A stretch of 64,000 bases of DNA from a virus (IMGVR_UViG_3300047189_000028), one strand, 5' to 3'; positions 577-59,178 are shown, counted from the first letter of the stretch. Translations and numbers: made by a program. The notes: a model not told the origin generated them from the letters alone.

Positions 577-593
577 CTAAAATTTAAGTAGGT

Positions 594-980: not shown

Positions 981-1045
981 CAAGGTCTCCAATCGTGGGT
1001 AGATACAGAGTATCTACTCAGCCGAGACTTGCGACAACAAACGAA

Positions 1046-1465: not shown

Positions 1466-1623
1466 GCGAACATCCTTTTGACACTAACCATCAATATCAT
1501 TACTGAAGTAGCAAGTCCTGCAATACAAAACAAGAATTGTGTGGAGGGGATCGCATTACCAATGGTATGAACCACCACCGCCAATGCGATTATTCCACCA
1601 ATTACTTTGTCGGTAGTGTCCAT
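1462..1623 (-). CDS. small membrane protein (53 aa)
   Basis: Start MDTTDKVIGGIIALAVVVH... is coupled to the upstream gene by a TAATG overlap. One predicted TM helix. Confidence 0.4.
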   Translation of the reverse strand: MDTTDKVIGGIIALAVVVHTIGNAIPSTQFLFCIAGLATSVMILMVSVKRMFA

Positions 1624-2039
1624 TACTTTGTCTCGATTCGTACGCAAGTTTTGTCCTTGAACGAACGATATGCCTGCTTGATAAACGAAGGTGGCTTCTG
1701 GTAGCTTCGTACTCGATGCCTCAGCCACAAAGTGCGAATGCCCCACACTACAAGAGCAACCACTGTAGCACCAGCAGTGCCTCCGCCAGCCTGGAGCATA
1801 ACTGTTGGTAGGTTGAAGTTGATCAGCAGATGAACAAGAAAGGCAAGACCACAGATTGCAAGAAAGGCTGCCCCTGCAAACAAAGCACAACCCAGTGCAC
1901 CAAGAAGAACTCCCTGTGCCACCTGCCTTACATAGAAGCAGATGTTGTTTTCGTCGGTTGCGCTCTCATCGTCGTGGAAGTCTCCGAGCTTGTAAGCAAG
2001 GAAATAATGCCACGACTTGCGGTTGATTGTGAATGTCAT
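1623..2039 (-). CDS. membrane protein (138 aa)
   Basis: ORF track; two hydrophobic helices (LLGALGCALFAGAAFLAICGLAFLV). Confidence 0.5.
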   Translation of the reverse strand: MTFTINRKSWHYFLAYKLGDFHDDESATDENNICFYVRQVAQGVLLGALGCALFAGAAFLAICGLAFLVHLLINFNLPTVMLQAGGGTAGATVVALVVWGIRTLWLRHRVRSYQKPPSFIKQAYRSFKDKTCVRIETK

Positions 2040-2050
2040 GGGATTCTCCC

Positions 2051-2674
2051 TTAACCGTTGCCGAACTGTTCAGCCTGGAACTGGTACTTGTTGTTAAAGT
2101 ACCCCATCAGAAAATCGAGGTCCTGCATGCGAGCATTCGACCACTTACCAGTCAGGTAGGAAAACGCCATCACCTTCTTGATATCTTCGATGCACTCACT
2201 GTCATCAGTCGGCATCAGCTCCAGAGCGGCGGACAGGTTAGCAGTGATGAACTCTTCGATCTCGTAGTCGAGCTGTTCCGTCAGAAGAATCTCAAGCTGT
2301 GACTGCTTGTGAGCAGCCGCAACCGTTGCCTCGATCGCGCCAGTGAGCTTCTTGTACTCTTCAGGAGTCAGATCGCTGTCGTCTTCGTCAAGCTCAGCGA
2401 AATCAATATCCGGAAAGTCCACAACCTGAACAGGTGCGGTCTTAGTGACGAGCTTGAAGCGCGATTCACTGACAGCCTGAACAGTGAACAAGCTGTCGAG
2501 CTTTGCTAGACGAAGGCAGAAGTTGGCAGACGCCTCGATGTTCTCGAGGGAGCTGAACGGATCGCGCAGCGTAATGGTGACGCACGTCTTGTTGACGCGA
2601 ATCTCCGCAGTGCCGTAGTAATCACGAATCGCGTTCTTGACGTACGTGTAGTCGATAAAGTCGGTGTCCAGCAT
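2051..2674 (-). CDS. acidic hypothetical protein (207 aa)
   Basis: ORF track; GGAG RBS; Asp/Glu-rich. Confidence 0.5.
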   Translation of the reverse strand: MLDTDFIDYTYVKNAIRDYYGTAEIRVNKTCVTITLRDPFSSLENIEASANFCLRLAKLDSLFTVQAVSESRFKLVTKTAPVQVVDFPDIDFAELDEDDSDLTPEEYKKLTGAIEATVAAAHKQSQLEILLTEQLDYEIEEFITANLSAALELMPTDDSECIEDIKKVMAFSYLTGKWSNARMQDLDFLMGYFNNKYQFQAEQFGNG

Positions 2675-2760
2675 TGTCAGTCTCCAATTAGTGAATTGAG
2701 GTTGTCAGTATACCACAACTTAACCCTATTAACAACAGATCAAAGAATTCTTTTCAGAGT

Positions 2761-3036
2761 TCACGCTGGCACTTTGACAGGATGTGCAGCTTCAAATTCA
2801 GCATACGTCATCGAATCACCGACGGCGCCTACGCCAGTTGCAATGAACGAACCACGAGACTTCGAGATTGCCTTGACGCCATTCTTTCGCTTGCGTCCGT
2901 CGAATTTACGAAACGTTGATTCCTGCCAACCTTGCCCTTTGCAGCCAAGACAGATTACCGCAGTTCCTTTTGCCTCGGCAAATCCACAATAAAGGCCAGT
3001 TCCGTTGCAAGAAACACATTCATGAATTACGTTCAT
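2761..3036 (-). CDS. small CxxC zinc-finger protein (91 aa)
   Basis: Internal ATG at 3036 with GGAG RBS. The N-terminal part of the listed ORF overlaps the neighbouring gene. CVSCNG...CLGCKG. Confidence 0.4.
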   Translation of the reverse strand: MNVIHECVSCNGTGLYCGFAEAKGTAVICLGCKGQGWQESTFRKFDGRKRKNGVKAISKSRGSFIATGVGAVGDSMTYAEFEAAHPVKVPA

Positions 3037-3037
3037 G

Positions 3038-3388
3038 TTAGTTACTCCCAGTTTCGCATACACAGTCGAGTAGATCAGCTTTCGATGTCCATTCGCCACA
3101 TTCCTTGCATTTCGTTTTGCACTCACAATCTTCTGTGAGTTCACCACACTTCCGGCACTCACCGTCTTCATTTTCACCCATTTCAAGAGCACATGGCTTG
3201 AGAGGGAAATCGTCCTGAATCTGGCCACAGTTCAGGCACCAGCTGAACTCAACATAGTCGCCACCACCGATCCCCATGTCACTTGGTAGGTAGCCGTCTT
3301 GTTCGTTTTCACCAATCGAGACAAAATGAAGGTCACTTGCCTTGCTGTTAACCGAAGCAATGCGATTGCTGCCACATTTGCATGTCAT
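3038..3388 (-). CDS. Cys-rich zinc-ribbon protein (116 aa)
   Basis: AGGAGAG RBS; multiple CxxC pairs. Confidence 0.5.
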   Translation of the reverse strand: MTCKCGSNRIASVNSKASDLHFVSIGENEQDGYLPSDMGIGGGDYVEFSWCLNCGQIQDDFPLKPCALEMGENEDGECRKCGELTEDCECKTKCKECGEWTSKADLLDCVCETGSN

Positions 3389-3390
3389 GA

Positions 3391-3789
3391 TTACTCTCCT
3401 GCGTTTGGAAATGGGTTGAGGTGACCAAGCCTGATCATCTCTTCATACTTGCGGAACAACCGATCGAACTTGCGGTGATACAACTGGTGTAGGCCAAGAA
3501 CAATGTTTGCAATCTCGTCCTTTGTCATTTCATCATCTTCCATTACCGCCTCAAACAGAACATCAAGATCGTCAGTAACATGCCATGCATCCATGATCTT
3601 GTCTTCTAGTGTGTCATTTGGACCAGCATTGACAATCTGCTGCTCAGCTGGTTTGATTTTTGCTGCAAGTTCATTTGCTGCAAGGACAAAGTCGACATTT
3701 GGTGGTTCGCCGTAACGATTGACACCTCGAGCAGCAAAGAATGTCAGAAGATCGTGGATCCGTTCTGCAGTGTGATCGTCGATGTTCAT
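3391..3789 (-). CDS. hypothetical protein (132 aa)
   Basis: ORF track; tightly packed operon. Confidence 0.5.
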   Translation of the reverse strand: MNIDDHTAERIHDLLTFFAARGVNRYGEPPNVDFVLAANELAAKIKPAEQQIVNAGPNDTLEDKIMDAWHVTDDLDVLFEAVMEDDEMTKDEIANIVLGLHQLYHRKFDRLFRKYEEMIRLGHLNPFPNAGE

Positions 3790-3989
3790 CGCTTGACCAC
3801 TTCAAATAGCTTCTCGATCATCTCTGAACGAACACGTTGTTCAGCGGTGTATAGTATGTGATCGGAAACGTTTCCTTTGACTGCAAGCACACACTTGATC
3901 ATGCGGATTGCATTGATCACGCACTCAACGTCGTCGTCTCTCATATCTTTCTCAAGAACGACGGTTAATGAATGAATTCGGTCTGTCAT
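3786..3989 (-). CDS. hypothetical protein (67 aa)
   Basis: ORF track; 4-nt overlap coupling. Confidence 0.4.
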   Translation of the reverse strand: MTDRIHSLTVVLEKDMRDDDVECVINAIRMIKCVLAVKGNVSDHILYTAEQRVRSEMIEKLFEVVKR

Positions 3990-3994
3990 AATAC

Positions 3995-4198
3995 TTACCT
4001 CGGAATGTCCTTCAGTGGCTCTTCACTCCTTGCCTCGACAATCAGCCTCATCAACTGAGCCTCGAGAATCAGAGCAGTTTCCTTTGCAGCAATGATCTCT
4101 TCGCGAGGGTTCTTTGCACCAACATCAAGCATTCGGAATGCTGTCGTTGATCCATACGCTCGCAGTAGCATTGAGTTCAGTTCACGCCTTGTAGCCAT
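3995..4198 (-). CDS. hypothetical protein (67 aa)
   Basis: ORF track. Confidence 0.4.
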   Translation of the reverse strand: MATRRELNSMLLRAYGSTTAFRMLDVGAKNPREEIIAAKETALILEAQLMRLIVEARSEEPLKDIPR

Positions 4199-4300
4199 AT
4201 ATCACCTATTGGGTCAGTAAACAAATAGACATCACAATAACGTACAGAAGAATGCCGATTGTGACATTCCTCCAAAAATGAAACGGTTCGACTGGTTCGC

Positions 4301-4519
4301 TCATCGGTGAACATCGTCACGAGGATTTGGCTTCTCGCCAGAAGCACCCCAGTACGCAAGACGAATCAGCTCACCATCAGACAGCATGCAATACTCTCGT
4401 GTACACGCAAGACGGCGAGCCTCACGAAGGATTCGATCACCTTCGGGCGTTTCCGCCTTTCGCCCCCACAACGCTCTCGTCTCTGGTTTCGTTTCGTCTA
4501 CGATTTTCATAATCTTCAC
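4301..4519 (-). CDS. hypothetical protein (72 aa)
   Basis: ORF track. Confidence 0.4.
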   Translation of the reverse strand: MKIMKIVDETKPETRALWGRKAETPEGDRILREARRLACTREYCMLSDGELIRLAYWGASGEKPNPRDDVHR

Positions 4520-4631
4520 CTTTCTCCTGAGCTAAGTCACACAGCGACCAATTTCCAATACCCCAAAATCATGTCCCCGATTGCTGTTACCATCATCACA
4601 ATTCTCTACGGTATCGCAGAGCCTTCGACAA

Positions 4632-4925
4632 TTACTTGCGAATAAACCTCTCGTAAACAATCATACCGATTATGCACAGTGGGATCACAATAAACCACAG
4701 TTTGATAATCAATACGAGTGCAAGTCCTGCGCCACATGCGGCGAGCATTAACATCCCACCGCCACTGAGTGTCTTCCAAAATCCCTTCCAGCCAGAATGA
4801 AATACCATTCCGCAAGCAAGCAGCGCTGGGATACCAAATATCACCCATAAGATTGACATACTACGATCTCCTTGTGATTTCAACTTCCCAACCATTCTGT
4901 TTGCAGAACTCTTCCACCCCTTCAA
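4632..4925 (-). CDS. membrane protein (97 aa, 2 TM)
   Basis: ORF track; hydrophobic helices. Confidence 0.45.
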   Translation of the reverse strand: MKGWKSSANRMVGKLKSQGDRSMSILWVIFGIPALLACGMVFHSGWKGFWKTLSGGGMLMLAACGAGLALVLIIKLWFIVIPLCIIGMIVYERFIRK

Positions 4926-5289
4926 CTGTCACGTTGGAAAAGAAGCAGTCAGCCCATTGCTCCTCATTCCCTTCGAATACTTCTCCGCCTTCCACGATAA
5001 TATCAAGCTTCGGCAGTGGCTCAACAAATTCAGGTTGTTCGTACAATGGCTGCCAATAACCCAAATACCGTTCAAGTGCCTCAACAATTGGCTTCAGTAC
5101 AACATCAATTGGAGGATGGTGACTCGTTGTATAGTACACAGGTGCGATTGCATTCGGCGCAGCGTTCATATACGCACTGACACCGATTGGTCGGTTGTGC
5201 TCATATAAGATTCGCTTCAAGCTCTCATACGTCTGACATAGTACGAATGCAGCCTGTTCCGGATTACCGTTATAGTTCATCTGCATCAA
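4861..5289 (-). CDS. hypothetical protein (142 aa)
   Basis: ORF track. Confidence 0.45.
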   Translation of the reverse strand: MMQMNYNGNPEQAAFVLCQTYESLKRILYEHNRPIGVSAYMNAAPNAIAPVYYTTSHHPPIDVVLKPIVEALERYLGYWQPLYEQPEFVEPLPKLDIIVEGGEVFEGNEEQWADCFFSNVTVEGVEEFCKQNGWEVEITRRS

Positions 5290-40087: not shown

Positions 40088-41287
40088 TTAGTACGGAATG
40101 TCGTCGCCGAAGTCTTCGTCATCATCATTCATGTCGGCATCGAGCTGAGTGTGGTGCGGACGTCCGCCCTTCAGTGTACCATGCTCATGTAGATTGGCAA
40201 GATGGGTTGGATGTGGAGCAGTTGGATCGGCAGGCTTTGCACTTGCATCCTTCCAACCATATCCACCAGTTGACTTGCGATCGCCCTTAAGTACACGACG
40301 AATTGCGCTTGGAGTAACCATCGCCCACTTAGCAGCCTCCTCTACACTATGGAAGCAATCGATTACTTCACCATCAGAGGTATCAATTGCTTCGATTGGA
40401 CACTCGTTGTTGTCATCAGACTCAACAGCTGCAGCAGTAGCAACTTGATCATTGTCAAACTCATTCTGCTCGTCGTCGAAGTCATACTCGTCCTCGTCAT
40501 CCACCGGTGCCTTGTAGTTGTCCGAAGGCTGGAACGACCCCTCAAGCGGCTTCTCGTTCTTGTGCTCAAGTTCACCAATCACCTCGTAGCGGCAAGTACG
40601 ACCCTTCGTGTCGTTGTAGTCAGCAGGAATCGCAACAACATCAGCAGGGTTGATCTTGAGGATCACCGTGCGATTGCCCGAATCGTTGCCGAAATGCTGG
40701 AGATACTCACGCGAGCAGAAGTGCAAGCCAGCTGAACAGGTCTGCTTCGGATCTTCGTTGACCTGGTTGCGCTCCATTTCGACAACCGTACCGATCGCAT
40801 TGCTCATCGTGCCGGTGTAACAATCGGTGTAGTTGTTGCGAACACGCTTGTAAGAGAGGAAGTGACCATCTTCAGTGATAGGCAGCTTGCCCTTCTCGAG
40901 GAAGCCGTACAGTTCATTCACCGCACGGAAGCTCGGATTCTGCTGAAGGTTCGAAAGGAAGTTGCACATCGGTTCGATGTCAAACCCTTCATTCGCCATC
41001 GCAACGATGCGATCGGTCAGTGTGTTGTGAATCGGCTTGTCGTTGTAGTACACAACACCAGCCTTGAGTTCGACGTTCTTGACACCGCGCTTTGTGACCT
41101 TCTCGATCTTGGCCTTCACTGCCGCAACCGGAACAGCGAGCTTACGAGCCTTCTCAAACTGCTTCGCGTTGAGTGCTTCGATGATCTCGTTGTAGCGAGG
41201 GTTGGTAGGATAGACGGTAGTCGTTTCACCATTTGCAAAGGAAATCGTGAGATGATCCTTTGACTTCATATATGCTTCTGCAGTCAT
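40088..41287 (-). CDS. rIIB: rIIB-like protein
   Basis: The central region (ITEDGHFLSYKRV...CSAGLHFCSREYLQHFG...NPADVVAIPADYNDTKGRTCRYEV) parallels T4 rIIB (ITEDGYFYAWKVV...CSRGLHVCSKSYIRHFG...DYNDAKMRTCQYEV). It sits immediately downstream of rIIA. Confidence 0.8.
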   Translation of the reverse strand: MTAEAYMKSKDHLTISFANGETTTVYPTNPRYNEIIEALNAKQFEKARKLAVPVAAVKAKIEKVTKRGVKNVELKAGVVYYNDKPIHNTLTDRIVAMANEGFDIEPMCNFLSNLQQNPSFRAVNELYGFLEKGKLPITEDGHFLSYKRVRNNYTDCYTGTMSNAIGTVVEMERNQVNEDPKQTCSAGLHFCSREYLQHFGNDSGNRTVILKINPADVVAIPADYNDTKGRTCRYEVIGELEHKNEKPLEGSFQPSDNYKAPVDDEDEYDFDDEQNEFDNDQVATAAAVESDDNNECPIEAIDTSDGEVIDCFHSVEEAAKWAMVTPSAIRRVLKGDRKSTGGYGWKDASAKPADPTAPHPTHLANLHEHGTLKGGRPHHTQLDADMNDDDEDFGDDIPY

Positions 41288-41290
41288 GTG

Positions 41291-43525
41291 TTAACTCCTG
41301 TCGATGAGTTCAATGTAGTCGAACAAAACAGTCAAATCCTTTCCGCTGGAGTAACTGATGCTGCTAATATAGCTGAACATCGGATACACCTTGAATGCGT
41401 TGTCGTCAAAATATCCTGGAACCTTATTATCAAACAAACCAAGGCCCAAGTCCACATTTATTTGCCTGATGAACCTGACCATACGGCCAACCTTGCCAAA
41501 CTTTGCATGATCTTCAATGAGAGGCAGTACCGCTACCCTGAAAGCAGAATCCTTGTCAAGTTTCTGAACAAGTTTGACGAAATCGGAAGTGCTCTTTTCG
41601 GTGCAGCGAGTCTTGATTCCGTGTGCATCGCTCGTACGCTCGATTGCATCGAAGTAGTGAACCGCAGTGTCATATCCCTTAACAACTTCCTTGAGGACGT
41701 CGAAGAGATTGACCCAGTTCTCATTCTTCTTGATCTTACCGATCGCCTGCGAACCAAAACCGTAAATGTCCTTAACACTGTAATCAGTCTTGAGGTGCTT
41801 GTTGATCAGATCGATCGCAACCACGAAGTTGCCTTCGACATCACTGATCTTCCAGTTTACGTTCTCCAGAACACCATTCTTCATGAACGACACATGCGCG
41901 CCGTTCTGAAGGTGGAAGTAAAGGCCACCCTTCTCGAGGTCGATTGTAGGCGTACGCTTCCAAACGATGTACGGATTGTACTTACCTTGAATGCCACTGA
42001 ACTGAAAGATCGGAAGTTCGTTCTTGTACGAACCACGAGCACGTTCAGGAATCGGTGCATCCTTGCTAGTAAGCAAGAAATTGACATTGCCGAGCTCCTG
42101 GCGCAGGCGGGTTAGCTCAGTCAGGTAGTGCTGCTCAGTCCACACTTCTTTCTTGAGCATCTTTTGACCGCTCGGATCGTACACGACCTCTTCGAAATCC
42201 TTCTTGGGGCGAATAACGATCGCAGTCGGAGCATGCTGACCGTATGCCTTGTTGGCACGACGGACCCACTCCATCGCACGAGCAACACCACCAACCGGCA
42301 GATCGTTGTAGAATACAACGATATGTGACTCAGGTGTGACACCACTACCAAACGTCTTGCGCTTGACCGTGCGTCCTTCTTTTCCATGTGTCTGCTCAAA
42401 TACCGAAATCTCGTGACCAGTCAGCGAACCAACCTGCAGAGTGCCACCAATCTTGACGTACTCCCGAATCTGTGTGTTGGTCGTTTCTTTGACGAATTCC
42501 TTGAATAGGTTGCGGTTGCCAAAAATCTGTTCAGCAACCGTGTGGAGCTGAATCATGACATCCCAAAACGGCTTGTCTTTGAGAGCTTCAACTTGATCCT
42601 CAACCGACTTGAGAACACCCGCGCGGACAGCCTTGATCTTCTCGATCAGTGCAGCCTTCGAGCGATCATCGTAACGAATTTCCTCACGGTTGGCAGCAAC
42701 CTCAAGATCGCCGATGTCGAAGAATCCGACAATGTGTGCGTTCTCAAGGATCTTCGTGTCGCTTGCGCTGAGCTCCAGCTTGCTGATGTCAACCTTGTAG
42801 GCGACGTTGCCCTGTACTGCAGTCATTTTGCTGTAGTCGCCAGCGAAGTTCTTTTCGAACATCTTCCAACCTTCGCCCTCGAGGCGCTCTTTGGAAACCT
42901 CCGGCCACGAGAAATTGTGTGAACCAACAACTTCCGGCTTAATCGGGAACCAGCGAAGTGCCTTTGCAGTCTTTTCACTGAACACATACCAGTCGCTAGC
43001 AGCAACTGTAATACGAACTTCAAGACCATTGTGCTCATCAGTGTTGATCTCACCGAGACGAGCGATCGACGGAACACCATCTTCGTTAATGAACGCGGAG
43101 TATGTGCGGCGCATTCCATTGAAGCGTGACACAACCTCGAAAGCCTTTGTGTAACTGAACGGACTCTTCGATCCGAGGCCGAGAGCACCAATGAACGCGT
43201 TGCTGTTTGACTTCGTGGAATCAAAATACGTGGTGTAGAGCTGCATGACGTCTTCGTCAGACAAGCCAGTACCGAAATCACGAACGTGGAACCACGGCTC
43301 TAGTGAATTCGGAAGGTGAATCTCAAACGCCTGATCAGCATTGCCAGCTGCGACGTGCGCATCCCAGGCATTGCAAGACAGTTCGCGGACAATCGCAAGT
43401 TTCGGGTCGGTATAGAGGCCGGATGATAGAATGTCAAAGGCCTTGGCAGTCGTCTTGATACTGAACGCCCGTTCGGACGCAACACCAAATCGCTCAATAT
43501 CATTACGTTCGGTATGAAGTTTCAT
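41291..43525 (-). CDS. rIIA: rIIA-like protein (histidine-kinase-like ATPase fold)
   Basis: N-terminus AFSIKTTAKAFDILSSGLYTDPKLAIVRELSCNAWDAH and FIGALGLGSKSPFSYT closely match T4 rIIA ([20 protein letters not shown]...VRELITNMIDAH; FIGGFGLGSKSPFSYT). Confidence 0.85.
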   Translation of the reverse strand: MKLHTERNDIERFGVASERAFSIKTTAKAFDILSSGLYTDPKLAIVRELSCNAWDAHVAAGNADQAFEIHLPNSLEPWFHVRDFGTGLSDEDVMQLYTTYFDSTKSNSNAFIGALGLGSKSPFSYTKAFEVVSRFNGMRRTYSAFINEDGVPSIARLGEINTDEHNGLEVRITVAASDWYVFSEKTAKALRWFPIKPEVVGSHNFSWPEVSKERLEGEGWKMFEKNFAGDYSKMTAVQGNVAYKVDISKLELSASDTKILENAHIVGFFDIGDLEVAANREEIRYDDRSKAALIEKIKAVRAGVLKSVEDQVEALKDKPFWDVMIQLHTVAEQIFGNRNLFKEFVKETTNTQIREYVKIGGTLQVGSLTGHEISVFEQTHGKEGRTVKRKTFGSGVTPESHIVVFYNDLPVGGVARAMEWVRRANKAYGQHAPTAIVIRPKKDFEEVVYDPSGQKMLKKEVWTEQHYLTELTRLRQELGNVNFLLTSKDAPIPERARGSYKNELPIFQFSGIQGKYNPYIVWKRTPTIDLEKGGLYFHLQNGAHVSFMKNGVLENVNWKISDVEGNFVVAIDLINKHLKTDYSVKDIYGFGSQAIGKIKKNENWVNLFDVLKEVVKGYDTAVHYFDAIERTSDAHGIKTRCTEKSTSDFVKLVQKLDKDSAFRVAVLPLIEDHAKFGKVGRMVRFIRQINVDLGLGLFDNKVPGYFDDNAFKVYPMFSYISSISYSSGKDLTVLFDYIELIDRS

Positions 43526-49955: not shown

Positions 49956-50324
49956 TTAGAAATTGCTATTTGAAAGCGATGCTGCGTACTTCGTGTTCGA
50001 CAGATTCCAATGCTGCTTCCAATTCCAGTTGTCGTCAACATAGTTTGAAAATTGCTGCTGGTCAAGTTCGACTATTGGATCGACATCCATTTCAAGCATA
50101 CGGATTACCATGTTGTATTCGCCTGTGTGGTCTTGGGGAGCTTGCTCAAAGAAAGCTACAACAACCTTCTTTCCACTTTTGAGAAGCTTGAGGTTTTCTT
50201 CAAGAATACGTATGCATTCTTTGCGGTAGCCTTCGAAAGCTTCTTCATAAACTGAATGATGGTTGTCGCGATTCTTCTTAATTGTCGCCAACAGTTCTTT
50301 CTTATCTACTTTAATTGAGTGCAT
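49956..50324 (-). CDS. hypothetical protein (122 aa)
   Basis: ORF track. Confidence 0.45.
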   Translation of the reverse strand: MHSIKVDKKELLATIKKNRDNHHSVYEEAFEGYRKECIRILEENLKLLKSGKKVVVAFFEQAPQDHTGEYNMVIRMLEMDVDPIVELDQQQFSNYVDDNWNWKQHWNLSNTKYAASLSNSNF

Positions 50325-50332
50325 GTTATTCC

Positions 50333-50563
50333 TTATTTAATTCCAAAATGTTTTTTGATCATTTGCATTGCTGCAAGTCGACCGTATTCTTCGTTCATTG
50401 AAGTGAGGTCATCTGATGGGTCGAGCACCTTGAGGCACTCTTCAACAACCAGTTCACCAAACTTTTCTTCCCATACCCACGGCACAGGACCATCGCTGTC
50501 CTTGTAGGTTTCACAACAATGGTCAAATGCTTGTGTTGCAAGTTCACGAATCTTTGTGTTCAT
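50333..50563 (-). CDS. hypothetical protein (76 aa)
   Basis: ORF track. Confidence 0.45.
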   Translation of the reverse strand: MNTKIRELATQAFDHCCETYKDSDGPVPWVWEEKFGELVVEECLKVLDPSDDLTSMNEEYGRLAAMQMIKKHFGIK

Positions 50564-51495
50564 TAGGTACCTACACCATTTCCAAACACACTGTTCTGGA
50601 TACGGTGGCAGTAAATGTATCCTTTATCGATACACATTTGTGCTACCTTCGCTGCAATCTCTTGTTGCTGTTCTTCCGTACAAGCTACTGGCATAATGTA
50701 TACGTCAGCATCTCGTGGAACACCAACCCCATAATATTCTTCCATTGCGTTTTCAACTTCTCTAAAGTCTACTTCATATGGGCCACAAACGAACTTGAAA
50801 TACTGTTCTGTATACAGACGACCGATTACAGCCGTTGGATGTGCTGGATCAGTTGCGTATAAAATTTGCTTTCGAGCAATCTCTGGACGAATAGCATCCT
50901 TCCAAATCTCACCACTACCAGAAATCTTTGGTGAGTTGCTCCAAATAAATCTAATCTGGCTAACAAGTGTCTGCTTGTGGGATGCCCACTCGTATAATGC
51001 TGTTAGGTCTTTATCGCGCATTGGAGCAGCACAGTTTGTTTCAATCAGAACCGTACGCATACCATGCTGATACAGTTCCTCGAGAATAGGAATCCAGAAC
51101 TTGAGTCGGATTGTAGGCTCACCCCCTGTTAGTGATAAAATGACTCGTTTGCCAGTTACTGGATTTTGGAAAGTGTTGTGTGGAAGTACTTTTAATACTT
51201 CAGCGGCAAGTGCCTTTTCATCTCCTTGCCCCCACATATGTGCGAACTTAGGATTGACAGCATATTGACTATCGCATCCTTTGTGGATAAGTGGAATGTC
51301 TTGAAGTGTCTTGAAATCTTCTGGCTCAAAATTTAGTGTTGCATACCCATCACTTTCAATAGCTTTTGTTGGATTGTTAAATCCACGACATTGAAAGTTG
51401 CAACGAGCGAAACGAATATAAACTGTTGGGTGCCCGGCATATTTGGCTTCACCTTCAATAGACATAAAGATTTCAGACCATTCATACTTTGCCAT
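50563..51495 (-). CDS. queE: QueE-like radical-SAM enzyme (7-carboxy-7-deazaguanine synthase family) with non-canonical Cys spacing
   Basis: N-terminus EIFMSIEGEAKYAGHPTVYIRFARCNFQC follows the QueE hallmark EIF.SIQGEG...P.VFIRF.GCN. The canonical CxxxCxxC is replaced by CNFQC plus a distal Cys. Confidence 0.55.
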   Translation of the reverse strand: MAKYEWSEIFMSIEGEAKYAGHPTVYIRFARCNFQCRGFNNPTKAIESDGYATLNFEPEDFKTLQDIPLIHKGCDSQYAVNPKFAHMWGQGDEKALAAEVLKVLPHNTFQNPVTGKRVILSLTGGEPTIRLKFWIPILEELYQHGMRTVLIETNCAAPMRDKDLTALYEWASHKQTLVSQIRFIWSNSPKISGSGEIWKDAIRPEIARKQILYATDPAHPTAVIGRLYTEQYFKFVCGPYEVDFREVENAMEEYYGVGVPRDADVYIMPVACTEEQQQEIAAKVAQMCIDKGYIYCHRIQNSVFGNGVGT

Positions 51496-52369
51496 TTAAT
51501 ATTTTCCTTAGTTGATCGGGTGTTTGAACAAACAGAAAATTTTCGTTTAATTCCTTAACCCAACTTATCTTTTTTTGAAGTCTTGATTTATACACTTCCG
51601 TTTTAATTCCTGAAACTTCTATCCATAATTGTACCTCAGGAATATAGAAATCACAAGTGTGATTTGTTGTACTTTGAGGGTATCGTTTTTGGTGTTCAAA
51701 CGACAACCCATTATTTTTACAAGCCTCTTGAACTACAGTATAACAAGCACTTTCAAGTATTGACCTAAATGTAATACCATTAACAGTGGTTGGTGTTCCA
51801 AATTTAGATCTGCATTTTGGACATCCAGTTGCTCTTTTTCCATGTAGTTTCGTTGGTTTTGCTTTCCACGAGTATAAGCAATATTCACATTTTACGGTAA
51901 TAGGAACATGAGATCCACAATAGTTTCCCACTCTTACAATTCCACGCTGTGCCTTTTTGAGTTTTGTATCAAATTGCTCATTAGTTAATAGGGTATTAAA
52001 AGCACAAGTGGGACATCCTTGTCTGGCAGAAATATGTTTGTTTGGTGTTATTGAAAAGGGTCCATGAAATTTACATTCGACCAATATAGGACGCAATGCT
52101 GAAGAATATTTTGTGTTTGTGTAATCATAGGTGGTTCCATGAATGCTCTTAGCTTTAGAGATGAATTCATCGGTAGTTAGTTTAATTGAGCCGGCACATT
52201 TTGGACACCCTGTCTTTTGATTTATTATTTTGAAGGGGGTAGTAGTCCAACAATGATCGCAGATGAGACACTTAAACTTTGTGGGTTTGCTAACAAAGGT
52301 AAATTCTTCAACAACTTGAATTTTTCGCTTTGTTAATATATAATCAATCTGCTTTTTTGTCCTGCTCAT
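51482..52369 (-). CDS. freestanding homing-endonuclease-like protein: multiple GCPxC zinc ribbons plus C-terminal Vsr/DUF559-like nuclease motif
   Basis: Repeated GCPKC/GCPTC; C-terminal CDFYIPEVQLWIEVSG resembles the Vsr/DUF559 core (D..iP....iEvDG). Start MSRTKKQ with AGGAGAGACACG RBS. Confidence 0.5.
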   Translation of the reverse strand: MSRTKKQIDYILTKRKIQVVEEFTFVSKPTKFKCLICDHCWTTTPFKIINQKTGCPKCAGSIKLTTDEFISKAKSIHGTTYDYTNTKYSSALRPILVECKFHGPFSITPNKHISARQGCPTCAFNTLLTNEQFDTKLKKAQRGIVRVGNYCGSHVPITVKCEYCLYSWKAKPTKLHGKRATGCPKCRSKFGTPTTVNGITFRSILESACYTVVQEACKNNGLSFEHQKRYPQSTTNHTCDFYIPEVQLWIEVSGIKTEVYKSRLQKKISWVKELNENFLFVQTPDQLRKILNGKV

Positions 52370-52437
52370 CGTGTCTCTCCTATAAATAGTATTTATAAGT
52401 AATGTGCGATAAGTTGGACACAACAATAAGGGTTATA

Positions 52438-53934
52438 ATGAGAAAGAAAGTAACGATAAACAAATCAACATTTGATGTTCCAGCCTTTTCACAAAACGAG
52501 ATTAAAAACGAAGGTAAGGTATACACTCCTGATGTGGTAACTCAGGATATTGTCGCTCGCTTTCCATATTTTGTTGATCCAAGTCGTGTTGTTGCTGATC
52601 CGTCTTGTGGTCAAGGTAATTTACTTCGTGTTGTGTTTCAACACCGACTTACGCAAACCAAGTCAGCGGATCAAGCATTTGAAAATATTAGAGGATTTGA
52701 GCTTGATCCGGTTGGTGTTCAAAGGGCTCACGAATATTTTATTGAAGAGGGTGTTTCAAAAAAACTCGTAAAGCAGAATATTGTTCAATGTAACACACTA
52801 GAACGCTACACTAAGTACACTGGAACAATTGATGATGTACTTGGAAATCCACCATATGTTAGATCGCCGGGTAATCTTCCGGCTTCAATTACAATGAACG
52901 ATAACTTAGTGGATGCGTTCTTTCAGGTTGGTATGGAATTATTGAAGCCTGGTAACGACCATCACCTTGTGTACATCGTACAGGATTCGTTTATTACAAA
53001 TGAAATTTCACCATTGCGTGAATATTTTCAACAGTTTAATATTAAGACGCTTGAACATCGTTTTGATTACTCACAAGCATTTCGTCGTCACGACATTGCT
53101 GTAGATATTGCTCTTGTTGAACTAACTAAGGGACCACAACAAGAATTTGTTGATGTTAGTAGACACATTCCATTCAAAATGCCAGCAGCATCCTTTCAAA
53201 CGAAAGAAAAATGGTTAATATATCCTTCCGTCATCAATGATCTTGCGGTTAAGCTTGGATCGGTTGGATACCCTCTGTCTTCTTTATGTACTATTAAGAA
53301 AGGACGAACAGTAAACCAGAATGGTGCTGTGCCAGCATCTTACGGAAGCACAACATTTAGTAAGAAAAAAACTAAGGAATTTAGTATTCCGGTGTTGAGC
53401 GAACCAAACACAGGTTATTTTTTTCCTGAAAGTCTAACGCCATTAGTTTTTGGCAAGTCAGTTGATAAGGTAATAGATAAACCGTTTGAACCTTTTGTTG
53501 TATTACCATACTTTACAAGTAAATTTCGGTTCTGTCTTATTGAACAAGACCTACTTACGACTCCATTGCTCTATACACTATCAGGTCCCAATGTAAAGTG
53601 GTTACTTCCTATTCTTAATTGCTCAGCAGTTGATTTTATGATCCGGTATCACACAAAGAGTCGTGACACTGGATACGAATTTAAGAGTTCAACATTTGAT
53701 AGGATTATCATTCCTACACTTGATTCTAAGGGAAGAAAACAAATGCTCCACCTCGTAGAGCTTGTTCGTTCTGGAAAGATAAGTAAAGAAGACTGTGATC
53801 GCTATGTAATGGATAATGTCTTCAAGTTATCCAAAGAAGAACAGGAACTAATTGAAAAATGTAAGGTCTTCTGGTTTAAGAAGAATGTCAAGACTTTACT
53901 TGCTGATCCTGATTTTTTAGCGACATTATCTTAG
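52438..53934 (+). CDS. gamma-class N6-adenine DNA methyltransferase with C-terminal target-recognition region
   Basis: Motif X VYTPDVV, motif I ADPSCGQGNLL, motif IV GNPPY, in that order. Confidence 0.7.
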   Translation: MRKKVTINKSTFDVPAFSQNEIKNEGKVYTPDVVTQDIVARFPYFVDPSRVVADPSCGQGNLLRVVFQHRLTQTKSADQAFENIRGFELDPVGVQRAHEYFIEEGVSKKLVKQNIVQCNTLERYTKYTGTIDDVLGNPPYVRSPGNLPASITMNDNLVDAFFQVGMELLKPGNDHHLVYIVQDSFITNEISPLREYFQQFNIKTLEHRFDYSQAFRRHDIAVDIALVELTKGPQQEFVDVSRHIPFKMPAASFQTKEKWLIYPSVINDLAVKLGSVGYPLSSLCTIKKGRTVNQNGAVPASYGSTTFSKKKTKEFSIPVLSEPNTGYFFPESLTPLVFGKSVDKVIDKPFEPFVVLPYFTSKFRFCLIEQDLLTTPLLYTLSGPNVKWLLPILNCSAVDFMIRYHTKSRDTGYEFKSSTFDRIIIPTLDSKGRKQMLHLVELVRSGKISKEDCDRYVMDNVFKLSKEEQELIEKCKVFWFKKNVKTLLADPDFLATLS

Positions 53935-54799
53935 CTGTAATTGTATTGACATAGAATTCGCGGAGTGTTTCACCTTCCATAAAGCCTTTTGAAATATCGT
54001 GAATGTCAACCGGACGAAGAATTCGTTTCTGTTCAAATGTAGTAGTTGGATCGTTATCCAACGCTTTCTGTTCTTCAATAGAGAACTCTACATATGCGTT
54101 TGCGATATGATAGTACGATTTATCAAGCATTGTTTGGAGGAAGCTGAGATCATAACCAATCCAGGACACAAACAAATCATCAAGTTCGCCCTTAGTACCA
54201 ACACTCTTACCTGATACCATTGAAAAGCGTTCCGTAATATTCTGTAGTTCACTAATGCGTTTGTTTTCTTCGTGAAAAATATTTGTTGTTTTATAGGTGA
54301 TTCGGATATCCTCATTACCTGACTTTTTCTTGCGAGGGTGAATAACCTTTAACTCAGGTCCAAAATCTTTCAGAATTGACTGAACCCACTTTAACAGGAG
54401 TTTATCTAATGCTTGTGATCTTGAACTGTTCTTACCTTTGCTGGCACCCTTTTGAACGGAAGCAATATATGCCCATTCCTCAATGAATCCGCGAGGAACT
54501 GTGGTTGAGTATGCTCTAACATCATCAAACAACTTCAATTCTTTGGCTGCAGCCTTGACCTTGTCAAATTCTGAGTCTGCTACCAACACAACATATAGAC
54601 AACAATTTAGACTATCAACTTCGTATACAGATTTCAGCACTTCTTTATCAAAAGGAGCATCTTCAAAATCAATAATAGCAATATCGTGTTTTTTGTTTTT
54701 GGGTTGAATCACGAAACTAATCTGAACATCGCCTATAGTATATCGCTTCCAAGAGCGAGGACGACGACCTAAGTTACAGGGAGTGATTGTAGCAGTCAT
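53888..54799 (-). CDS. hypothetical protein convergent with the MTase; candidate restriction endonuclease
   Basis: Own TTGACT-N16-TATAAT promoter. Convergent 3'-overlapping arrangement with the MTase. No recognisable catalytic motif. Confidence 0.3.
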   Translation of the reverse strand: MTATITPCNLGRRPRSWKRYTIGDVQISFVIQPKNKKHDIAIIDFEDAPFDKEVLKSVYEVDSLNCCLYVVLVADSEFDKVKAAAKELKLFDDVRAYSTTVPRGFIEEWAYIASVQKGASKGKNSSRSQALDKLLLKWVQSILKDFGPELKVIHPRKKKSGNEDIRITYKTTNIFHEENKRISELQNITERFSMVSGKSVGTKGELDDLFVSWIGYDLSFLQTMLDKSYYHIANAYVEFSIEEQKALDNDPTTTFEQKRILRPVDIHDISKGFMEGETLREFYVNTITAKIMSLKNQDQQVKS

Positions 54800-54828
54800 A
54801 TAACACCAACTATTGTTTAGATAGAAGA

Positions 54829-54856
54829 ATTATACCCTAATGATACTAAAAGTCAA
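54829..54856 (-). promoter_or_regulatory. sigma70-like promoter TTGACT-N16-(TTAGGG)TATAAT
   Basis: rc: TTGACTtttagtatcattagggTATAAT. Confidence 0.55.
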
Positions 54857-54860
54857 CCAA

Positions 54861-55055
54861 TTATTCTTTCTTTATAAAGATTAAATTTAACACATTCGTA
54901 ATGTGGCCTTCGTGGATGTGGGTTTGTGTGGGAACTACAAATTGAAGTTCATAGCCAGCGTCAATCAATGATGTAACATGTTGCTCATTTGCGGTAATGT
55001 GTTGACGATCGTTTGTTCCGATTACTAAATGCTTAAATTTTGTTTGTTGTGACAT
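54861..55055 (-). CDS. small hypothetical protein (64 aa), weakly QueE C-terminus-like
   Basis: AGGAGAAAGAT RBS. ITANEQHVTSLIDAGYELQF loosely parallels QueE CTEEQQQEIAAKVAQMCIDKGYIYCH. Confidence 0.35.
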   Translation of the reverse strand: MSQQTKFKHLVIGTNDRQHITANEQHVTSLIDAGYELQFVVPTQTHIHEGHITNVLNLIFIKKE

Positions 55056-55067
55056 ATCTTTCTCCTG

Positions 55068-55112
55068 TTATTTAATACTCATAAACACTTCAGACCATTC
55101 GTACTTAGCCAT
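55068..55112 (-). pseudogene. truncated queE paralog 5' remnant (14 codons, MAKYEWSEVFMSIK then stop)
   Basis: 12/14 residues identical to the intact QueE N-terminus; ~80 percent nt identity. Confidence 0.55.
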
Positions 55113-55291
55113 TAGACCACATCCTTCTTTTTAATCGTTCCACATTGCTCGCATTGTAGAACGTATCGTGTTCCAACTTTACATAATTCACCACCATCTT
55201 CTGGATGGCGATAAACTTTAAACACAGTCTCATCAATGGTTTTCCACTTATGAGCGTGTCCAAAAAGTAGTAGTTGAATTACTTTCCACAT
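55112..55291 (-). CDS. small zinc-ribbon protein (59 aa)
   Basis: TAATG coupling with the upstream gene; CKVG...CEQCG. Confidence 0.35.
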   Translation of the reverse strand: MWKVIQLLLFGHAHKWKTIDETVFKVYRHPEDGGELCKVGTRYVLQCEQCGTIKKKDVV

Positions 55292-55695
55292 TACAAAATT
55301 TCCTGAATCTTACTCACAACTTCGTCAAGTGAATTGACAATTGTTGTAGAGTGATAGATTAACCATGGTGATAGTCTTGCATCCCTTGATGTCCATACCA
55401 CAACTGGAATACCAAGCGTCCAAGCATAGAATACTTCCATACTTGTACCAACTGATGGCTTGTCGTAGTTTACGAGAACAATATCACAGTTACGGATATC
55501 ACGCTTATCAAGATCAACAATCTCACGATAATTGGAAAGTTCTTTACCACGATAGTCCCTCTTCATTGGATCTACGGAAGCAGGAAAATGTATCTTTACT
55601 ACTTCGCGCCAATTCCTTGCTTCTTCATTCGTGCAGCCATTAATAGGACCACACAAATAAACTTTAATTGTTTCCGGATTCATTTCAATCTCCAC
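55291..55695 (-). CDS. nucleoside 2-deoxyribosyltransferase / DNPH1(Rcl)-family protein
   Basis: KVYLCGPI...D...GTSMEVFYAWTLGIPVVVW matches the family pattern (YLAGP...GTAMELGYA.ALGKPV) with the catalytic Glu in GTSME. Confidence 0.55.
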   Translation of the reverse strand: MEIEMNPETIKVYLCGPINGCTNEEARNWREVVKIHFPASVDPMKRDYRGKELSNYREIVDLDKRDIRNCDIVLVNYDKPSVGTSMEVFYAWTLGIPVVVWTSRDARLSPWLIYHSTTIVNSLDEVVSKIQEIL

Positions 55696-55898
55696 ATCGC
55701 ATTTGTGGGGTCAATCTTACACTAGCTGACATAGGAGGGGCAAGGGTCCTCTCCGTTATGTGGTTGTCTTGCTTACAAAAGGGGCAACAAATTCCCTTAG
55801 GGACATAGTTCAAGTCTGTTGTTGCGTAACTCCACCAATTCTTACATTCGGAGCATGTGAAGTGAAATATTGTTTCTTTGTTATATTGTATTGCCATA

Positions 55899-56462
55899 TT
55901 ACCTCTTTGGCGGTTTCTTTTTAAGGAATGCCTTAAATTTCTTCTCCATCTTTTCTTTCCACTCACTACTATGTCGTCCACGCTTACCGAACAGTTCGCG
56001 AGCATCTGCCAATAGAACACCAGCTTCGTGGTATGCTTGTTCCCATTGCTTTCCAGGTTCCATAATATGTTTTAACTTATTGTTCTCTTCTTTTGTTACG
56101 TAATGAACATGACAATACTTGTCAACAATTGTTTTGACTTCTTCAAACGTTGGGGAGCGACCTTCACCAAACGTTGCCAGAATAAGCGTAACGATTTCTT
56201 CACCACCACGCTGTCTTGAGTGGTAATGATCTTCGCTGTGTCGAAACTTGGCACTATGTAGCTTCTTCTTAATCGCCGTTTGACTTGCCTTTCCGGTCCA
56301 TACACTTGGCATGTCGTGGATCATGTTCGCGTAATCACGACCGACACCTTTGAAGTCTTCAAATAAGACACGCTCAAGAGGTCGCTCGTGACGGAGCAAG
56401 TATTGCGAGTGAGATTCTACAGATTCAAACACCTTACGGAGCTTGGTCTCGTAATTTGACAT
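55899..56462 (-). CDS. hypothetical basic protein (187 aa)
   Basis: ORF track. Confidence 0.45.
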   Translation of the reverse strand: MSNYETKLRKVFESVESHSQYLLRHERPLERVLFEDFKGVGRDYANMIHDMPSVWTGKASQTAIKKKLHSAKFRHSEDHYHSRQRGGEEIVTLILATFGEGRSPTFEEVKTIVDKYCHVHYVTKEENNKLKHIMEPGKQWEQAYHEAGVLLADARELFGKRGRHSSEWKEKMEKKFKAFLKKKPPKR

Positions 56463-56561
56463 GTACTCTCTCTATTGTTATTCTTCTTCTCGAAGAGATT
56501 CTTGTCAGGCTATATTACATCAACGAAACATCACCTTCAACGAGTAGAGTATTTATGCAAT

Positions 56562-56598
56562 AAAAAAAGGGGTGCGTGAGAATCTCCCACGCACCCCT
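56562..56598 (-). terminator. strong rho-independent terminator GGGGTGCGTG-loop-CACGCACCCC plus T7 on the minus strand
   Basis: Read directly; after the SPFH gene stop. Confidence 0.7.
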
Positions 56599-56624
56599 AA
56601 GGTTATAGAACCTTCTGGTTGATC

Positions 56625-57866
56625 TTACTTCTTATCACCAGCCTTTACAGATAGATCAAGATTCAAATCTTTGGCAGCCTTGGCTGTCATGATTTCCATA
56701 AACGTCTGTGCACCATTTGCACCAGCACCCGAACCACCACCAAACACTGTGTTTGGTACGATGTTACCCTGGTACTTGGCAAACGCGTCTGCCCACGCAG
56801 ACTGCACTTCCTTGTATGTCTCAAGCTTCTGCGTCAACGCGCCGTCAGCATTAATGACAAGACGCTTCTTTTCAGCATCGCCCTGTCCTTCGAGAATCTG
56901 TTGCTGCTTGTAAGCTTCAGCCTGCTGAGCTGCAAGGATCGCAACCTGCTTGTTCTTCTCGGCAAGAGCAATTTCCTTCGCGTTGATTGTTTCCTGTTCC
57001 CACTTTGCCTTCGCGGCGTTGGCTTCACCCTGCTTAGCAGTTGTGATCGCATCCTGTTCAGCACGACGAGCGTTCGCCTGTGAAATCTGAACCTGAGTCG
57101 TCGCCTTCTGTCGCTCAGCAATCTGACCTTCGACAATATCGTTGTAGCGAATCTTGTTGATCGTTACAGGATACAGACGAATGCCGTGATCAGTAATCTG
57201 CGACGGAGCTGAACGAGCAGGATGACCATCAGTACCCACAACGATCTCAACAATCTTTGCTTCCTTGTCGGTGTTGGTCAGCGGATCGTGCTGAATAACA
57301 CTCTTCGTGTGAGTCAGGTACGGACCATTGACGAGCTGGTCATCAATGTACTGAGGGATCTCAGGACGACGTTCAGCGGACGATTCCGTTGACGACATCG
57401 TAGGACCGACAGTGTAAACAACCTTCTCAATCATTGGACGAATCAGCTGCTGCTCAATAGCTTCGAAGCTACCGAACTCGCGATGGATCTGGATCACCTT
57501 TGCAGTGTCGAGTGGCATATCCCACGAAACGACGCCGGATAAGTGCGCAGTACCACCATCGTTAAATCGAGTCTCAATCGACTCATCGACCTTACTGCCC
57601 TGATCCTTCGAAGAGCTGAAGGAATACTGAGCACGACGAGGATACTTCGTGTACTTGCCGAATCCCAACCACTTCCAGCCAGAGTCCGTGTATACGGAAA
57701 GACTGCCGCTGACTGGGCTCTGGACAACCATGATCTCATGAGCATCCACGTTTTCATACATATTCATCGCCATGACCGGAATACCGATCACTACGACCGC
57801 TGCCACCACGATTCCAAGAATGCCGAATCGGGAAAGAAGCGAAGTGCGACCTTCAGTTGTAGACAT
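56625..57866 (-). CDS. SPFH/band-7 domain membrane protein with long C-terminal coiled coil
   Basis: N-terminal TM, band-7-like core, Ala/Gln-rich coiled coil. Confidence 0.55.
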   Translation of the reverse strand: MSTTEGRTSLLSRFGILGIVVAAVVVIGIPVMAMNMYENVDAHEIMVVQSPVSGSLSVYTDSGWKWLGFGKYTKYPRRAQYSFSSSKDQGSKVDESIETRFNDGGTAHLSGVVSWDMPLDTAKVIQIHREFGSFEAIEQQLIRPMIEKVVYTVGPTMSSTESSAERRPEIPQYIDDQLVNGPYLTHTKSVIQHDPLTNTDKEAKIVEIVVGTDGHPARSAPSQITDHGIRLYPVTINKIRYNDIVEGQIAERQKATTQVQISQANARRAEQDAITTAKQGEANAAKAKWEQETINAKEIALAEKNKQVAILAAQQAEAYKQQQILEGQGDAEKKRLVINADGALTQKLETYKEVQSAWADAFAKYQGNIVPNTVFGGGSGAGANGAQTFMEIMTAKAAKDLNLDLSVKAGDKK

Positions 57867-58248: not shown

Positions 58249-59178
58249 TTACTTCTTTGTAGGAGTAACGACCGGGATTTCGTACCAAGGCAGAACACCA
58301 TGGTCATTCGCATCAACCGACTGCCAGTTCGGCGAACCGCTGTCCTGAAGCTCAGCAACGTGCGTCACGAAGCAGTCACGGAAGTGCTTCTGAGCAAGGA
58401 CTTTGGCAGGCGTGCTGTACTTGCGTGTCAGCAAGGTAGCAATCGGAGCCAGAGTCTTGAGTGGGCCGCTCGTGATACCAGGATAGTTGATCGTAGCTGG
58501 ACGATACACACCACTAACACGGCTAGCAATTGACTCACCAATCGGAAGGATCTTGACTTCACCACGAGCAAACTTCGTGATGTTCGGCAGAGGAGCCGCA
58601 CCCACGAAAATTGCAGCAGCAATGTCGCCGCTCTTCAGAGCAGCAATCACCTGGTCACCAGTGTCGTAAGGAACAACGGTGAACCCACCCTCGCCCTGAC
58701 CCTGCAGAATGCGTGCCGTATAGACACCACCACCAGCAGCACCGACCCTGTAGCCACGCACATCAGCGAGGCTGTTAAACTGCGCCTTGCCAAAGCTGAA
58801 CGTACCGTTCTGACCAGTCTTCGACTCAACAAGAGCGATCACATGGATCGGCTCAGGGTAGAGAGCGACGAGCGTCTGGAACTTCGCATACGAACTGTCA
58901 GCCTGCGCATTGGCAAAGTAGACGTCGCTGTGAAGGAATGCGGCCTGTGCCTTGTTATTCACGAGAGCGTCGAGGTTACCAGGCGCGCCGCCGGTCACGC
59001 CGCGAGCCTGCTGAATGTTGAAATCGTCTGTCGAACAGACACCGATAATCTCACTCAGCATCTTCTGATACGTACCGCTTGAACTATCTGCAGCAATCGT
59101 GATGCTGCTGCCGTTGTCGTCCGCGAAGGCCGCAGTCGACAGAGCGACGAGGAACAATGATGCAATAAACTTCTTCAT
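58249..59178 (-). CDS. periplasmic solute-binding protein, TAXI-family TRAP-receptor-like
   Basis: Signal peptide. ITIAADSSSGTYQKM...AAFLHSDVYFA...YPEPIHVIAL...VRGYRVGAAGGGVYTARIL...GDIAAAIFVGAAP...VKILPI follows the TAXI pattern. Confidence 0.55.
   Translation of the reverse strand: MKKFIASLFLVALSTAAFADDNGSSITIAADSSSGTYQKMLSEIIGVCSTDDFNIQQARGVTGGAPGNLDALVNNKAQAAFLHSDVYFANAQADSSYAKFQTLVALYPEPIHVIALVESKTGQNGTFSFGKAQFNSLADVRGYRVGAAGGGVYTARILQGQGEGGFTVVPYDTGDQVIAALKSGDIAAAIFVGAAPLPNITKFARGEVKILPIGESIASRVSGVYRPATINYPGITSGPLKTLAPIATLLTRKYSTPAKVLAQKHFRDCFVTHVAELQDSGSPNWQSVDANDHGVLPWYEIPVVTPTKK

Follow-up and report, generated by a model that had tools for sequence, protein, structure and literature searches.

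The 64,000-nucleotide (nt) stretch of the uncultured phage IMGVR_UViG_3300047189_000028 analyzed here in its entirety (the window) carries, directly upstream of queE, a low-GC island bounded by two diverged copies of the start of that gene. Within it lie an N6-adenine DNA methyltransferase gene, a convergent gene for a protein of 303 amino acids (aa), a homing-endonuclease-like gene and a 64-aa open reading frame (ORF). The methyltransferase and the 303-aa protein are probably a type II restriction-modification (R-M) pair. Our favored account of the island, to which we give a probability of roughly 0.55, is that this foreign mosaic of R-M pair, homing-endonuclease gene and 64-aa ORF was acquired by recombination between phages near the queE start.

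The island and the two queE starts are made up of the following features:

50563..51495, minus strand: intact queE, 310 aa, for a 7-carboxy-7-deazaguanine synthase-like radical SAM enzyme; native, right of the insert.
51454..51496: right repeat copy, 43 nt, which is the intact queE 5' end, with minority codons Ile9 (ATC), Tyr4 (TAT) and Ser12 (TCT).
51482..52369, minus strand: free-standing homing-endonuclease-like gene, 295 aa if read from its likely start, the ATG at 52369, with an AGGAG ribosome-binding site.
52438..53934, plus strand: gamma-class N6-adenine DNA methyltransferase gene, 498 aa if read from its likely start, the ATG at 52438, with motifs X-I-IV.
53888..54799, minus strand: gene for the 303-aa partner, a candidate PD-(D/E)XK restriction endonuclease, convergent with the methyltransferase gene and overlapping it by 47 nt.
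54829..54856, minus strand: sigma-70-like promoter consensus, TTGACT-16-TATAAT, 11/12 matches, 30 nt upstream of the 303-aa gene.
54861..55055, minus strand: orphan ORF of 64 aa, preceded by an AGGAG ribosome-binding site, within the repeat-bounded insert.
55068..55112, minus strand: truncated queE 5' remnant of 14 codons and a stop; the left repeat copy is 55071-55113.

The gene order is thus 59-aa gene, queE (1-~42), junction, 64-aa ORF, 303-aa gene, methyltransferase, endonuclease and full queE, the methyltransferase being the sole plus-strand gene of the stretch.

The segment is a horizontally acquired insertion relative to syntenic relatives. A QueE search returned 491 viral-type homologues at E<1e-40, every alignment being full-length (100% coverage), and contexts were examined for three of the four closest, L009, L011 and L012 (QueE identity to the window 79%, 78% and 76%, respectively). 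Synteny with the window extends over both flanks of the island in all three, the shared genes including the NMT1-like gene, Band_7 gene, 187-aa gene, deoxyribosyltransferase or 59-aa gene, then queE, a 122-aa gene and NUDIX, and none has any match to window 51515-55100; comparison with related phage genomes thus bears out the initial annotation, which had taken the segment for an inserted island. The slot directly upstream of queE holds different small ORFs in each relative, so we regard it as a variable slot like those of T4-type hyperplastic regions. Two native genes stand on the far side of the insert:

55112..55291, minus strand: 59-aa gene (phrog_8294), matching PHROG 8294 at E 3.8e-13; native, left of the insert.
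55291..55695, minus strand: nucleoside 2-deoxyribosyltransferase-family gene, matching Pfam PF05014 at E 2.3e-12; native flank.

The first has 56% aa identity to the product of L009 7150-7341, upstream of queE there, and the second, two genes upstream of queE in the window, has 79% to that of L011 7145-7534, likewise upstream of queE. The orphan 64-aa ORF has no match in the family libraries (Pfam, PHROG, NCBIfam, PADLOC) and no homologue in the fetched loci; kinship with small ORFs that precede queE in L011 and L012 was considered and rejected, BLASTP showing no similarity.

Base composition also sets the island apart. GC of 51496-55067 is 0.366, with 0.430 in the 5 kb to the left and 0.478 in the 5 kb to the right, and this is the lowest-GC 3572-nt stretch in the 64 kb (minimum at 51501; 0.1% of windows equally low). 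The genes past the far boundary (55112-55695) are likewise fairly AT-rich (0.38-0.39). The low-GC stretch reported initially is therefore real, while the drop into it is moderate, not sharp.

The far boundary holds a second queE start. Read on the minus strand from 55112 to 55068, the remnant is ATGGCTAAGTACGAATGGTCTGAAGTGTTTATGAGTATTAAATAA, with the translation MAKYEWSEVFMSIK and then a stop; its ATG shares nucleotides with the TAA that ends the 59-aa gene upstream, and it encodes the family-consensus MAKYEWSEVFMSI, including Val9. It agrees with the first 42 nt of queE at 35/42 positions. No other 42-mer in the window, whichever strand is read, scores above 24/42, so that the duplicate described in the initial annotation, a 14-codon ORF with its stop, stands well clear of background. 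An independent repeat search picked out 51454-51496 and 55071-55113, two 43-nt copies that are 84% identical (36/43) and lie 3617 nt apart from start to start; no direct repeat in the region is longer. In the relatives, the queE start sequence is present once only.

These two starts derive from two diverged functional alleles, as their differences are mostly synonymous. Over 13 codons there are six nt differences and a sole aa change, Val/Ile; the probability of a Val/Ile-only outcome under random substitution is 6e-4 (0.013 for the first 33 nt alone). The Ser12 codon is AGT in the remnant and TCT in the resident gene. Functional queE alleles with AGT at Ser12 were found in IMG/VR (L023 and L024), and a resident-type start (Ile9 with a TCN Ser12) was sought there and not found. 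Over 33 nt, L009 matches the remnant at 32/33 and the resident copy at 30/33. It is the resident start that departs from consensus, at positions 12, 25, 27, 34 and 35: the consensus-type start of L009 includes ...GAAGTGTTTATG..., while the resident start includes ...GAAATCTTTATGTCT... The copies thus diverged while both were in working genes, and from this sequence pattern the duplicate indicates recombination between two diverged phages, not a decayed duplication made in place.

A duplication made in place is what would be expected had the R-M unit inserted itself with a long target duplication, both queE starts coming from one target and the endonuclease gene nesting later. The geometry fits, provided that the partner is a restriction gene, with a 3.6-kb insert, a 43-nt repeat and relatives that carry the repeated sequence once. 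The repeats themselves make this origin improbable. Published copies are near-identical (44-46/46), and here they are 84% identical with synonymous or conservative differences (P 6e-4); decay of a non-coding remnant in place would not give a synonymous pattern, and the remnant is closer to the alleles of other phages than to the resident gene. A more trivial source of both island and queE duplicate would be chimeric assembly, the source being a metagenome contig and repeats being able to mislead assemblers. This can hardly be credited: identical sequence is present on a 74.8-kb JGI contig, and a Logan assembly of SRR35915816 (L004) is 100% identical over 7466 nt spanning both junctions, so that the junctions, matched by an independent assembly, are not artefacts of one assembler. 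Moreover, a 43-nt repeat at 84% is too short and too diverged for a misjoin, and the reading frames and ribosome-binding sites are coherent throughout.

The conservation of QueE suggests why its start might serve as a point of exchange. The protein matches PHROG 2076 ('QueE-like radical SAM domain') at E 6e-40 over residues 3-309, and NCBIfam bacterial QueE models match only its N-terminal ~30 residues, with scores under their cut-offs. Residues 1-~180 have 87% aa identity to L009 and 86% to L011, and the first 17, MAKYEWSEVFMSIEGEA, are near-invariant in ~120 homologues of 51-100% identity. In our favored account, donor and recipient would be two diverged phages that recombined at the variable slot upstream of queE. 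One crossover would have fallen within queE, whose first ~40 nt are near-invariant across the viral family, and the other junction would have been illegitimate, at about queE codon 13-14, leaving a truncated second start of a different allele. Clean homing leaves no duplicate, so the duplicate needs either one illegitimate junction or single-crossover integration. The likeliest trigger would be a double-strand break near the recipient queE start, perhaps made by the endonuclease itself, with 'one-sided' repair from an endonuclease-carrying donor; homology to the donor would exist on the queE side only, and the other end would be joined illegitimately. All four genes of the insert may have been transferred in one such event. 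The initial annotation had read the remnant as a donor-derived flank left by homing. Recombination between phages is upheld by the two alleles; the footprint as described is not, as clean homing makes no duplicate and the remnant would, in the one-sided model, be the recipient's own queE start.

We now turn to the R-M pair. The methyltransferase has motifs X (VYTP), I (DPSCGQG) and IV (NPPY) in that order, in agreement with the motifs first reported for it, followed by a conserved C-terminal half that is presumably the target-recognition domain; across the family, this half and the N-terminal one show much the same degree of conservation. It matches Pfam N6_Mtase at 6.5e-10 (passing the cut-off), Eco57I at 6.8e-8 and PADLOC MTase_II at 3e-16, and a profile of 13 homologues finds M.BseCI (7qw5) at 7e-9, and type I HsdM proteins too. 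The convergent placement of the 303-aa gene, with a sigma-70-like promoter consensus before it and the overlap of 3' ends, was confirmed (47 nt; 11/12 promoter matches). The promoter-like sequence at 54829-54856 is the best site in 51300-55800, a region whose count of promoter-like sites is no higher than in shuffled sequence.

The methyltransferase and its partner are adjacent in all seven contexts seen. Six are convergent with overlaps of 18-47 nt (the window, L006/L007, L014, L015/L016, L017/L018 and L022) and one is tandem (L005), so that the initial suggestion of R-M geometry now extends to a conserved two-gene module. These contexts are phage-like, with genes for baseplate hub, DNA helicase and HNH endonuclease nearby and GC of 0.25-0.44. 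The 303-aa family is rare: ~13 clusters at 50% identity among 1.84 billion representative proteins and, in 185,579 species genomes, one short contig, binned in a Methylomonas metagenome-assembled genome (MAG), where the pair with the methyltransferase is intact. The family was not found in IMG/VR, and neither the 303-aa protein nor the methyltransferase has a tblastn match among GenBank phages. This probable R-M pair is previously uncatalogued and known only from phage-like DNA.

Conserved residues and a predicted fold lend moderate support to a nuclease assignment for the partner. Ten residues are conserved in 7/7 sequences: D39, Y69, K121, D132, E163, D164, E178, K180, E190 and E238. A first structural model, from 3 sequences (pLDDT, the predicted local distance difference test score, 63; meaningless Foldseek matches), was discarded in favor of an AlphaFold2 model from a 14-sequence alignment, with pLDDT 86. 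In this model D164 lies before the strand 166-169, and E178-x-K180 lies within the strand 172-182 of a beta-hairpin, in a frame of helix 103-142, strand 150-153, helix 185-203 and strand 209-214; the predicted order of secondary structure is that of the PD-(D/E)XK core. If the pair is what it appears to be, the methyltransferase would mark phage DNA and the partner would cut unmarked DNA of the host or of competitors.

Alternatively, the 303-aa protein may not be a restriction endonuclease: the methyltransferase would be an anti-restriction (orphan-like) enzyme, and the partner a regulator, a DNA-binding accessory or a methylation-independent nuclease acting in host-DNA degradation or recombination. 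We hold this to be less likely than an R-M pair, though it deserves serious weight. Pfam, PHROGs and NCBIfam give the partner family zero recognition, its profile has no match among PDB sequences, and Foldseek of the model against PDB found nothing significant; the partner does match the nuclease end of a PADLOC type IIG model (1e-4), a match absent in other family members. The pair is confined to phage-like contigs, where solitary methyltransferases are common, with no GenBank phage match. Identities within the pair are also uncoupled. Among the seven pairs, methyltransferases are 44-79% identical and partners 29-47% (r = -0.1 over 21 pairwise comparisons), and between L014 25-2443 and window 52438-54799 the methyltransferases are 79% identical and the partners just 30%. 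Either the partner is much the faster-evolving of the two or the genes have been reshuffled between modules. Faster divergence is what a restriction gene would give, as restriction enzymes usually diverge faster than their cognate methyltransferases. Further points on the side of restriction are the strict linkage (7/7, in two arrangements, with a 3' overlap in six) and the conserved acidic and Lys residues, placed on a beta-hairpin as in PD-(D/E)XK enzymes.

The remaining identified gene of the island encodes a protein that has three treble-clef zinc modules of the CxxC type and, at its C terminus, a PD-(D/E)XK/Vsr-like domain with DFY...IEVSG. It matches Pfam DUF4379 (1e-8) and DUF723 (6e-5), PHROG 559 'HNH endonuclease' (1.7e-31) and 681 (1.1e-26) and, weakly, PADLOC PD-DEXK models (8.5e-5 and 1.2e-3); its assignment as a nuclease is drawn from the weak PHROG/PADLOC matches together with motif alignment. 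Membership in a homing-endonuclease family, as in the zinc-ribbon/Vsr(DUF559)-like label of the initial annotation, is supported, and DUF559 or Vsr as such is not matched in Pfam at E<=0.1. The gene had been described as ending 11 nt before the queE ATG; its TGA (51484-51482) sits 11 nt inside queE, the two genes overlapping by 14 nt. By tblastn, members of the family turn up at 1574 places in 839 GenBank phage records, in unrelated phages and often in several copies, with annotations as homing, HNH or VSR endonuclease. In Enterococcus phage iF6 (L026, MT909815.1), a 95-aa terminase fragment is separated from the main terL by two 'VSR endonuclease' homologues (579-4996), and the terminase gene looks as if split by homing-endonuclease genes, which is typical behavior for such genes. 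In the window, the gene is placed at a conserved gene start and is patchy among related genomes, being absent from L009, L011 and L012, and also from L003. The queE 5' end is thus a candidate target for this widespread zinc-finger/Vsr-like family of phage endonucleases.

Several observations weigh against our account. (i) The closest relatives are just 76-79% identical in QueE, and neither a true empty-site allele nor a donor was seen. (ii) Residues D240, E251, G254 and K267 of the endonuclease are conserved relative to five homologues, and ~15 residues are missing in the region of ~254-267, including the His of 'IE(F/Y)xGxxH' kept by 5/5 aligned homologues; with this His-containing segment missing, the protein may be inactive or degenerate. 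(iii) Neither in IMG/VR nor in JGI contigs was a close homologue found beside any other queE: IMG/VR gave zero close endonuclease homologues, and JGI metagenome contigs gave three partial matches only (43-47%), on unrelated AT-rich contigs. (iv) In none of the six other places where the R-M pair was seen is the endonuclease present. (v) Recurring intergenic promoter/stem-loop elements stand on both sides of the pair in L017, L015 and L022, the copies at L017 6893-6956 and 9386-9449 being 64 nt and 92% identical, with at least 5 occurrences in 15 kb; bracketed in this way, the pair can move by short-homology recombination with no endonuclease.

The last points lead to an origin by short homology with no endonuclease involved: a repeat-bounded donor segment, looped out as a circle or on a concatemer fragment, would have integrated by a single crossover in the ~40-nt queE 5' end, so that the truncated and intact copies would be donor/recipient hybrids and the endonuclease gene a passenger or later arrival. 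The near-invariance of MAKYEWSEVFMSIEGEA would offer homology common to otherwise diverged phages, the bracketed cassettes match promoter/stem-loop (PeSL) shuffling (PMC2839356, PMC4122927), and an R-M pair that elsewhere never accompanies this endonuclease, itself possibly degenerate, would be in keeping. Against it, the origin of the first truncated copy is left unexplained; homologous recombination over 40 nt at ~84% would be inefficient in the absence of a stimulating break, and an endonuclease gene exactly at, and overlapping, the queE start is the expected look of a queE-directed homing gene. We consider this origin rather unlikely. We are equally doubtful of the strongest form of homing, in which an endonuclease aimed at the ultra-conserved viral queE 5' end carries the uncatalogued R-M pair as cargo and the remnant is the scar. 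The initial annotation offered R-M riding on a homing cassette; with the pair lacking the endonuclease in six other contexts this is one possibility only, and because no other copy of the pair adjoins this endonuclease gene, the single-cassette reading is unproven.

We note some properties of the phage and of the surroundings of the island. The window carries both rIIA (41291-43525) and rIIB (40088-41287), is rich in small same-strand genes and has a viral-type queE. A 399-aa ORF at 40088-41287 with a sub-threshold NUMOD-like match was considered as a second homing-endonuclease gene and rejected, as it is rIIB. Judged by QueE, Xanthomonas phages X1 and BUDD come closest among GenBank phages (51% identical), and the nearest IMG/VR contig is 58% identical; at the DNA level, neither megablast of 50000-57000 nor blastn of 55112-55695 found a match among GenBank phages. 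GC differs strongly within the contig, at 0.55-0.58 in 8000-30000 vs 0.43-0.45 in 30000-56000. Among the flanking genes, the NMT1/TAXI-like solute-binding protein gene (58249-59178, minus strand; Pfam NMT1_3 E 7e-9; GC 0.55) is an unusual auxiliary gene amid a phage region. Its product has 87% aa identity to that of L009, and a TelA/TerC/TerD cluster stands in its place in L012. A 111-aa ORF at 55685-56020 (minus strand), which runs into the end of the 187-aa gene, has a weak zinc-ribbon match (DUF7836, E 2e-4); it was skipped by the gene caller of the Logan contig and may not be a real gene.

The island was also said to lie inside a DNA-modification locus, which is weakly true. The 64 kb has just queE, a QueD-like PTPS gene and a NUDIX gene to show for it, and no DpdA, QueC or FolE is detectable there with proteins of Xanthomonas phage X1 and Stenotrophomonas phage Moby as queries. 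Hutinet et al. (2019) left open 'undetected 2'-deoxyribosyltransferases' as a DpdA-independent path to 7-deazaguanine DNA (PMC6884629). In view of that remark and of the three undetectable genes, the deoxyribosyltransferase gene at 55291-55695 is a candidate for such a route.

Should the 303-aa family prove to be a restriction enzyme, it would be a new endonuclease family with a new specificity and a conserved methyltransferase partner, and the island another case of lytic phages carrying R-M. If the pair were in addition homing cargo, phage populations would be acquiring, through a selfish endonuclease, a weapon that cuts the DNA of the host or of co-infecting phages. Recombination between diverged phages has left a clear natural trace in the two-allele queE duplicate, at a conserved coding sequence that is very short, and the duplicate makes the queE start a concrete target to consider for the zinc-finger/Vsr-like family.

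Four known systems invite comparison. The free-standing seg and mob genes of T4-type phages are known for intronless homing, marker exclusion, one-sided homing and trans-homing (PMC2988022, PMC2790892, PMC2330249); in T4, homing is documented to include 'one-sided' events whose illegitimate junctions show microhomology (PMC2988022), and neighboring DNA is mobilized by free-standing endonucleases (PMC2790892). The island resembles these in having an endonuclease gene between conserved genes, abutting a conserved target-like gene and patchy among relatives, and, in our account, in the movement of neighboring DNA with one junction illegitimate. It differs in that its nuclease is of zinc-finger plus PD-(D/E)XK/Vsr-like type rather than GIY-YIG or HNH, in that this copy is without the conserved His segment, and in that the cargo would be a whole R-M pair.

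Type II R-M systems with M.BseCI/M.TaqI-type methyltransferases and restriction enzymes of the NgoMIV/BsaWI/SgrAI group share with the window pair the motif order X-I-IV followed by a C-terminal recognition domain, and a separate, convergent partner of ~300 aa with overlapping 3' ends and ED...ExK on a predicted beta-hairpin. Unlike them, the partner is without sequence similarity to catalogued restriction-enzyme families in the libraries searched, and the pair is confined to phage-like contigs, one of them binned into the Methylomonas MAG.

Furuta et al. (2010) described R-M units of <20 kb with direct target duplications of >30 bp (e.g. 46 bp) and no other mobility gene (PMC2853133). The island is likewise a small R-M-bearing insert with a direct repeat of local target sequence >30 bp and no transposase or integrase. 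Its repeats, at 36/43, fall below the near-identity of that study; they are 84% identical and of two alleles, the host is a lytic-type phage and an endonuclease gene is present.

Last, PeSL cassettes mediate module shuffling in the hyperplastic regions of T4-type phages (PMC2839356, PMC4122927). There the short conserved sequence is an intergenic regulatory cassette, unlike the coding queE 5' end used in the window. Shared features are the variable slot between conserved genes, the exchange via short conserved sequences and, for the R-M pair in L017, L015 and L022, the bracketing by repeated promoter/stem-loop elements. Set beside these systems, the island is a good natural example of known processes; it is no new kind of system and leaves current concepts unchallenged.

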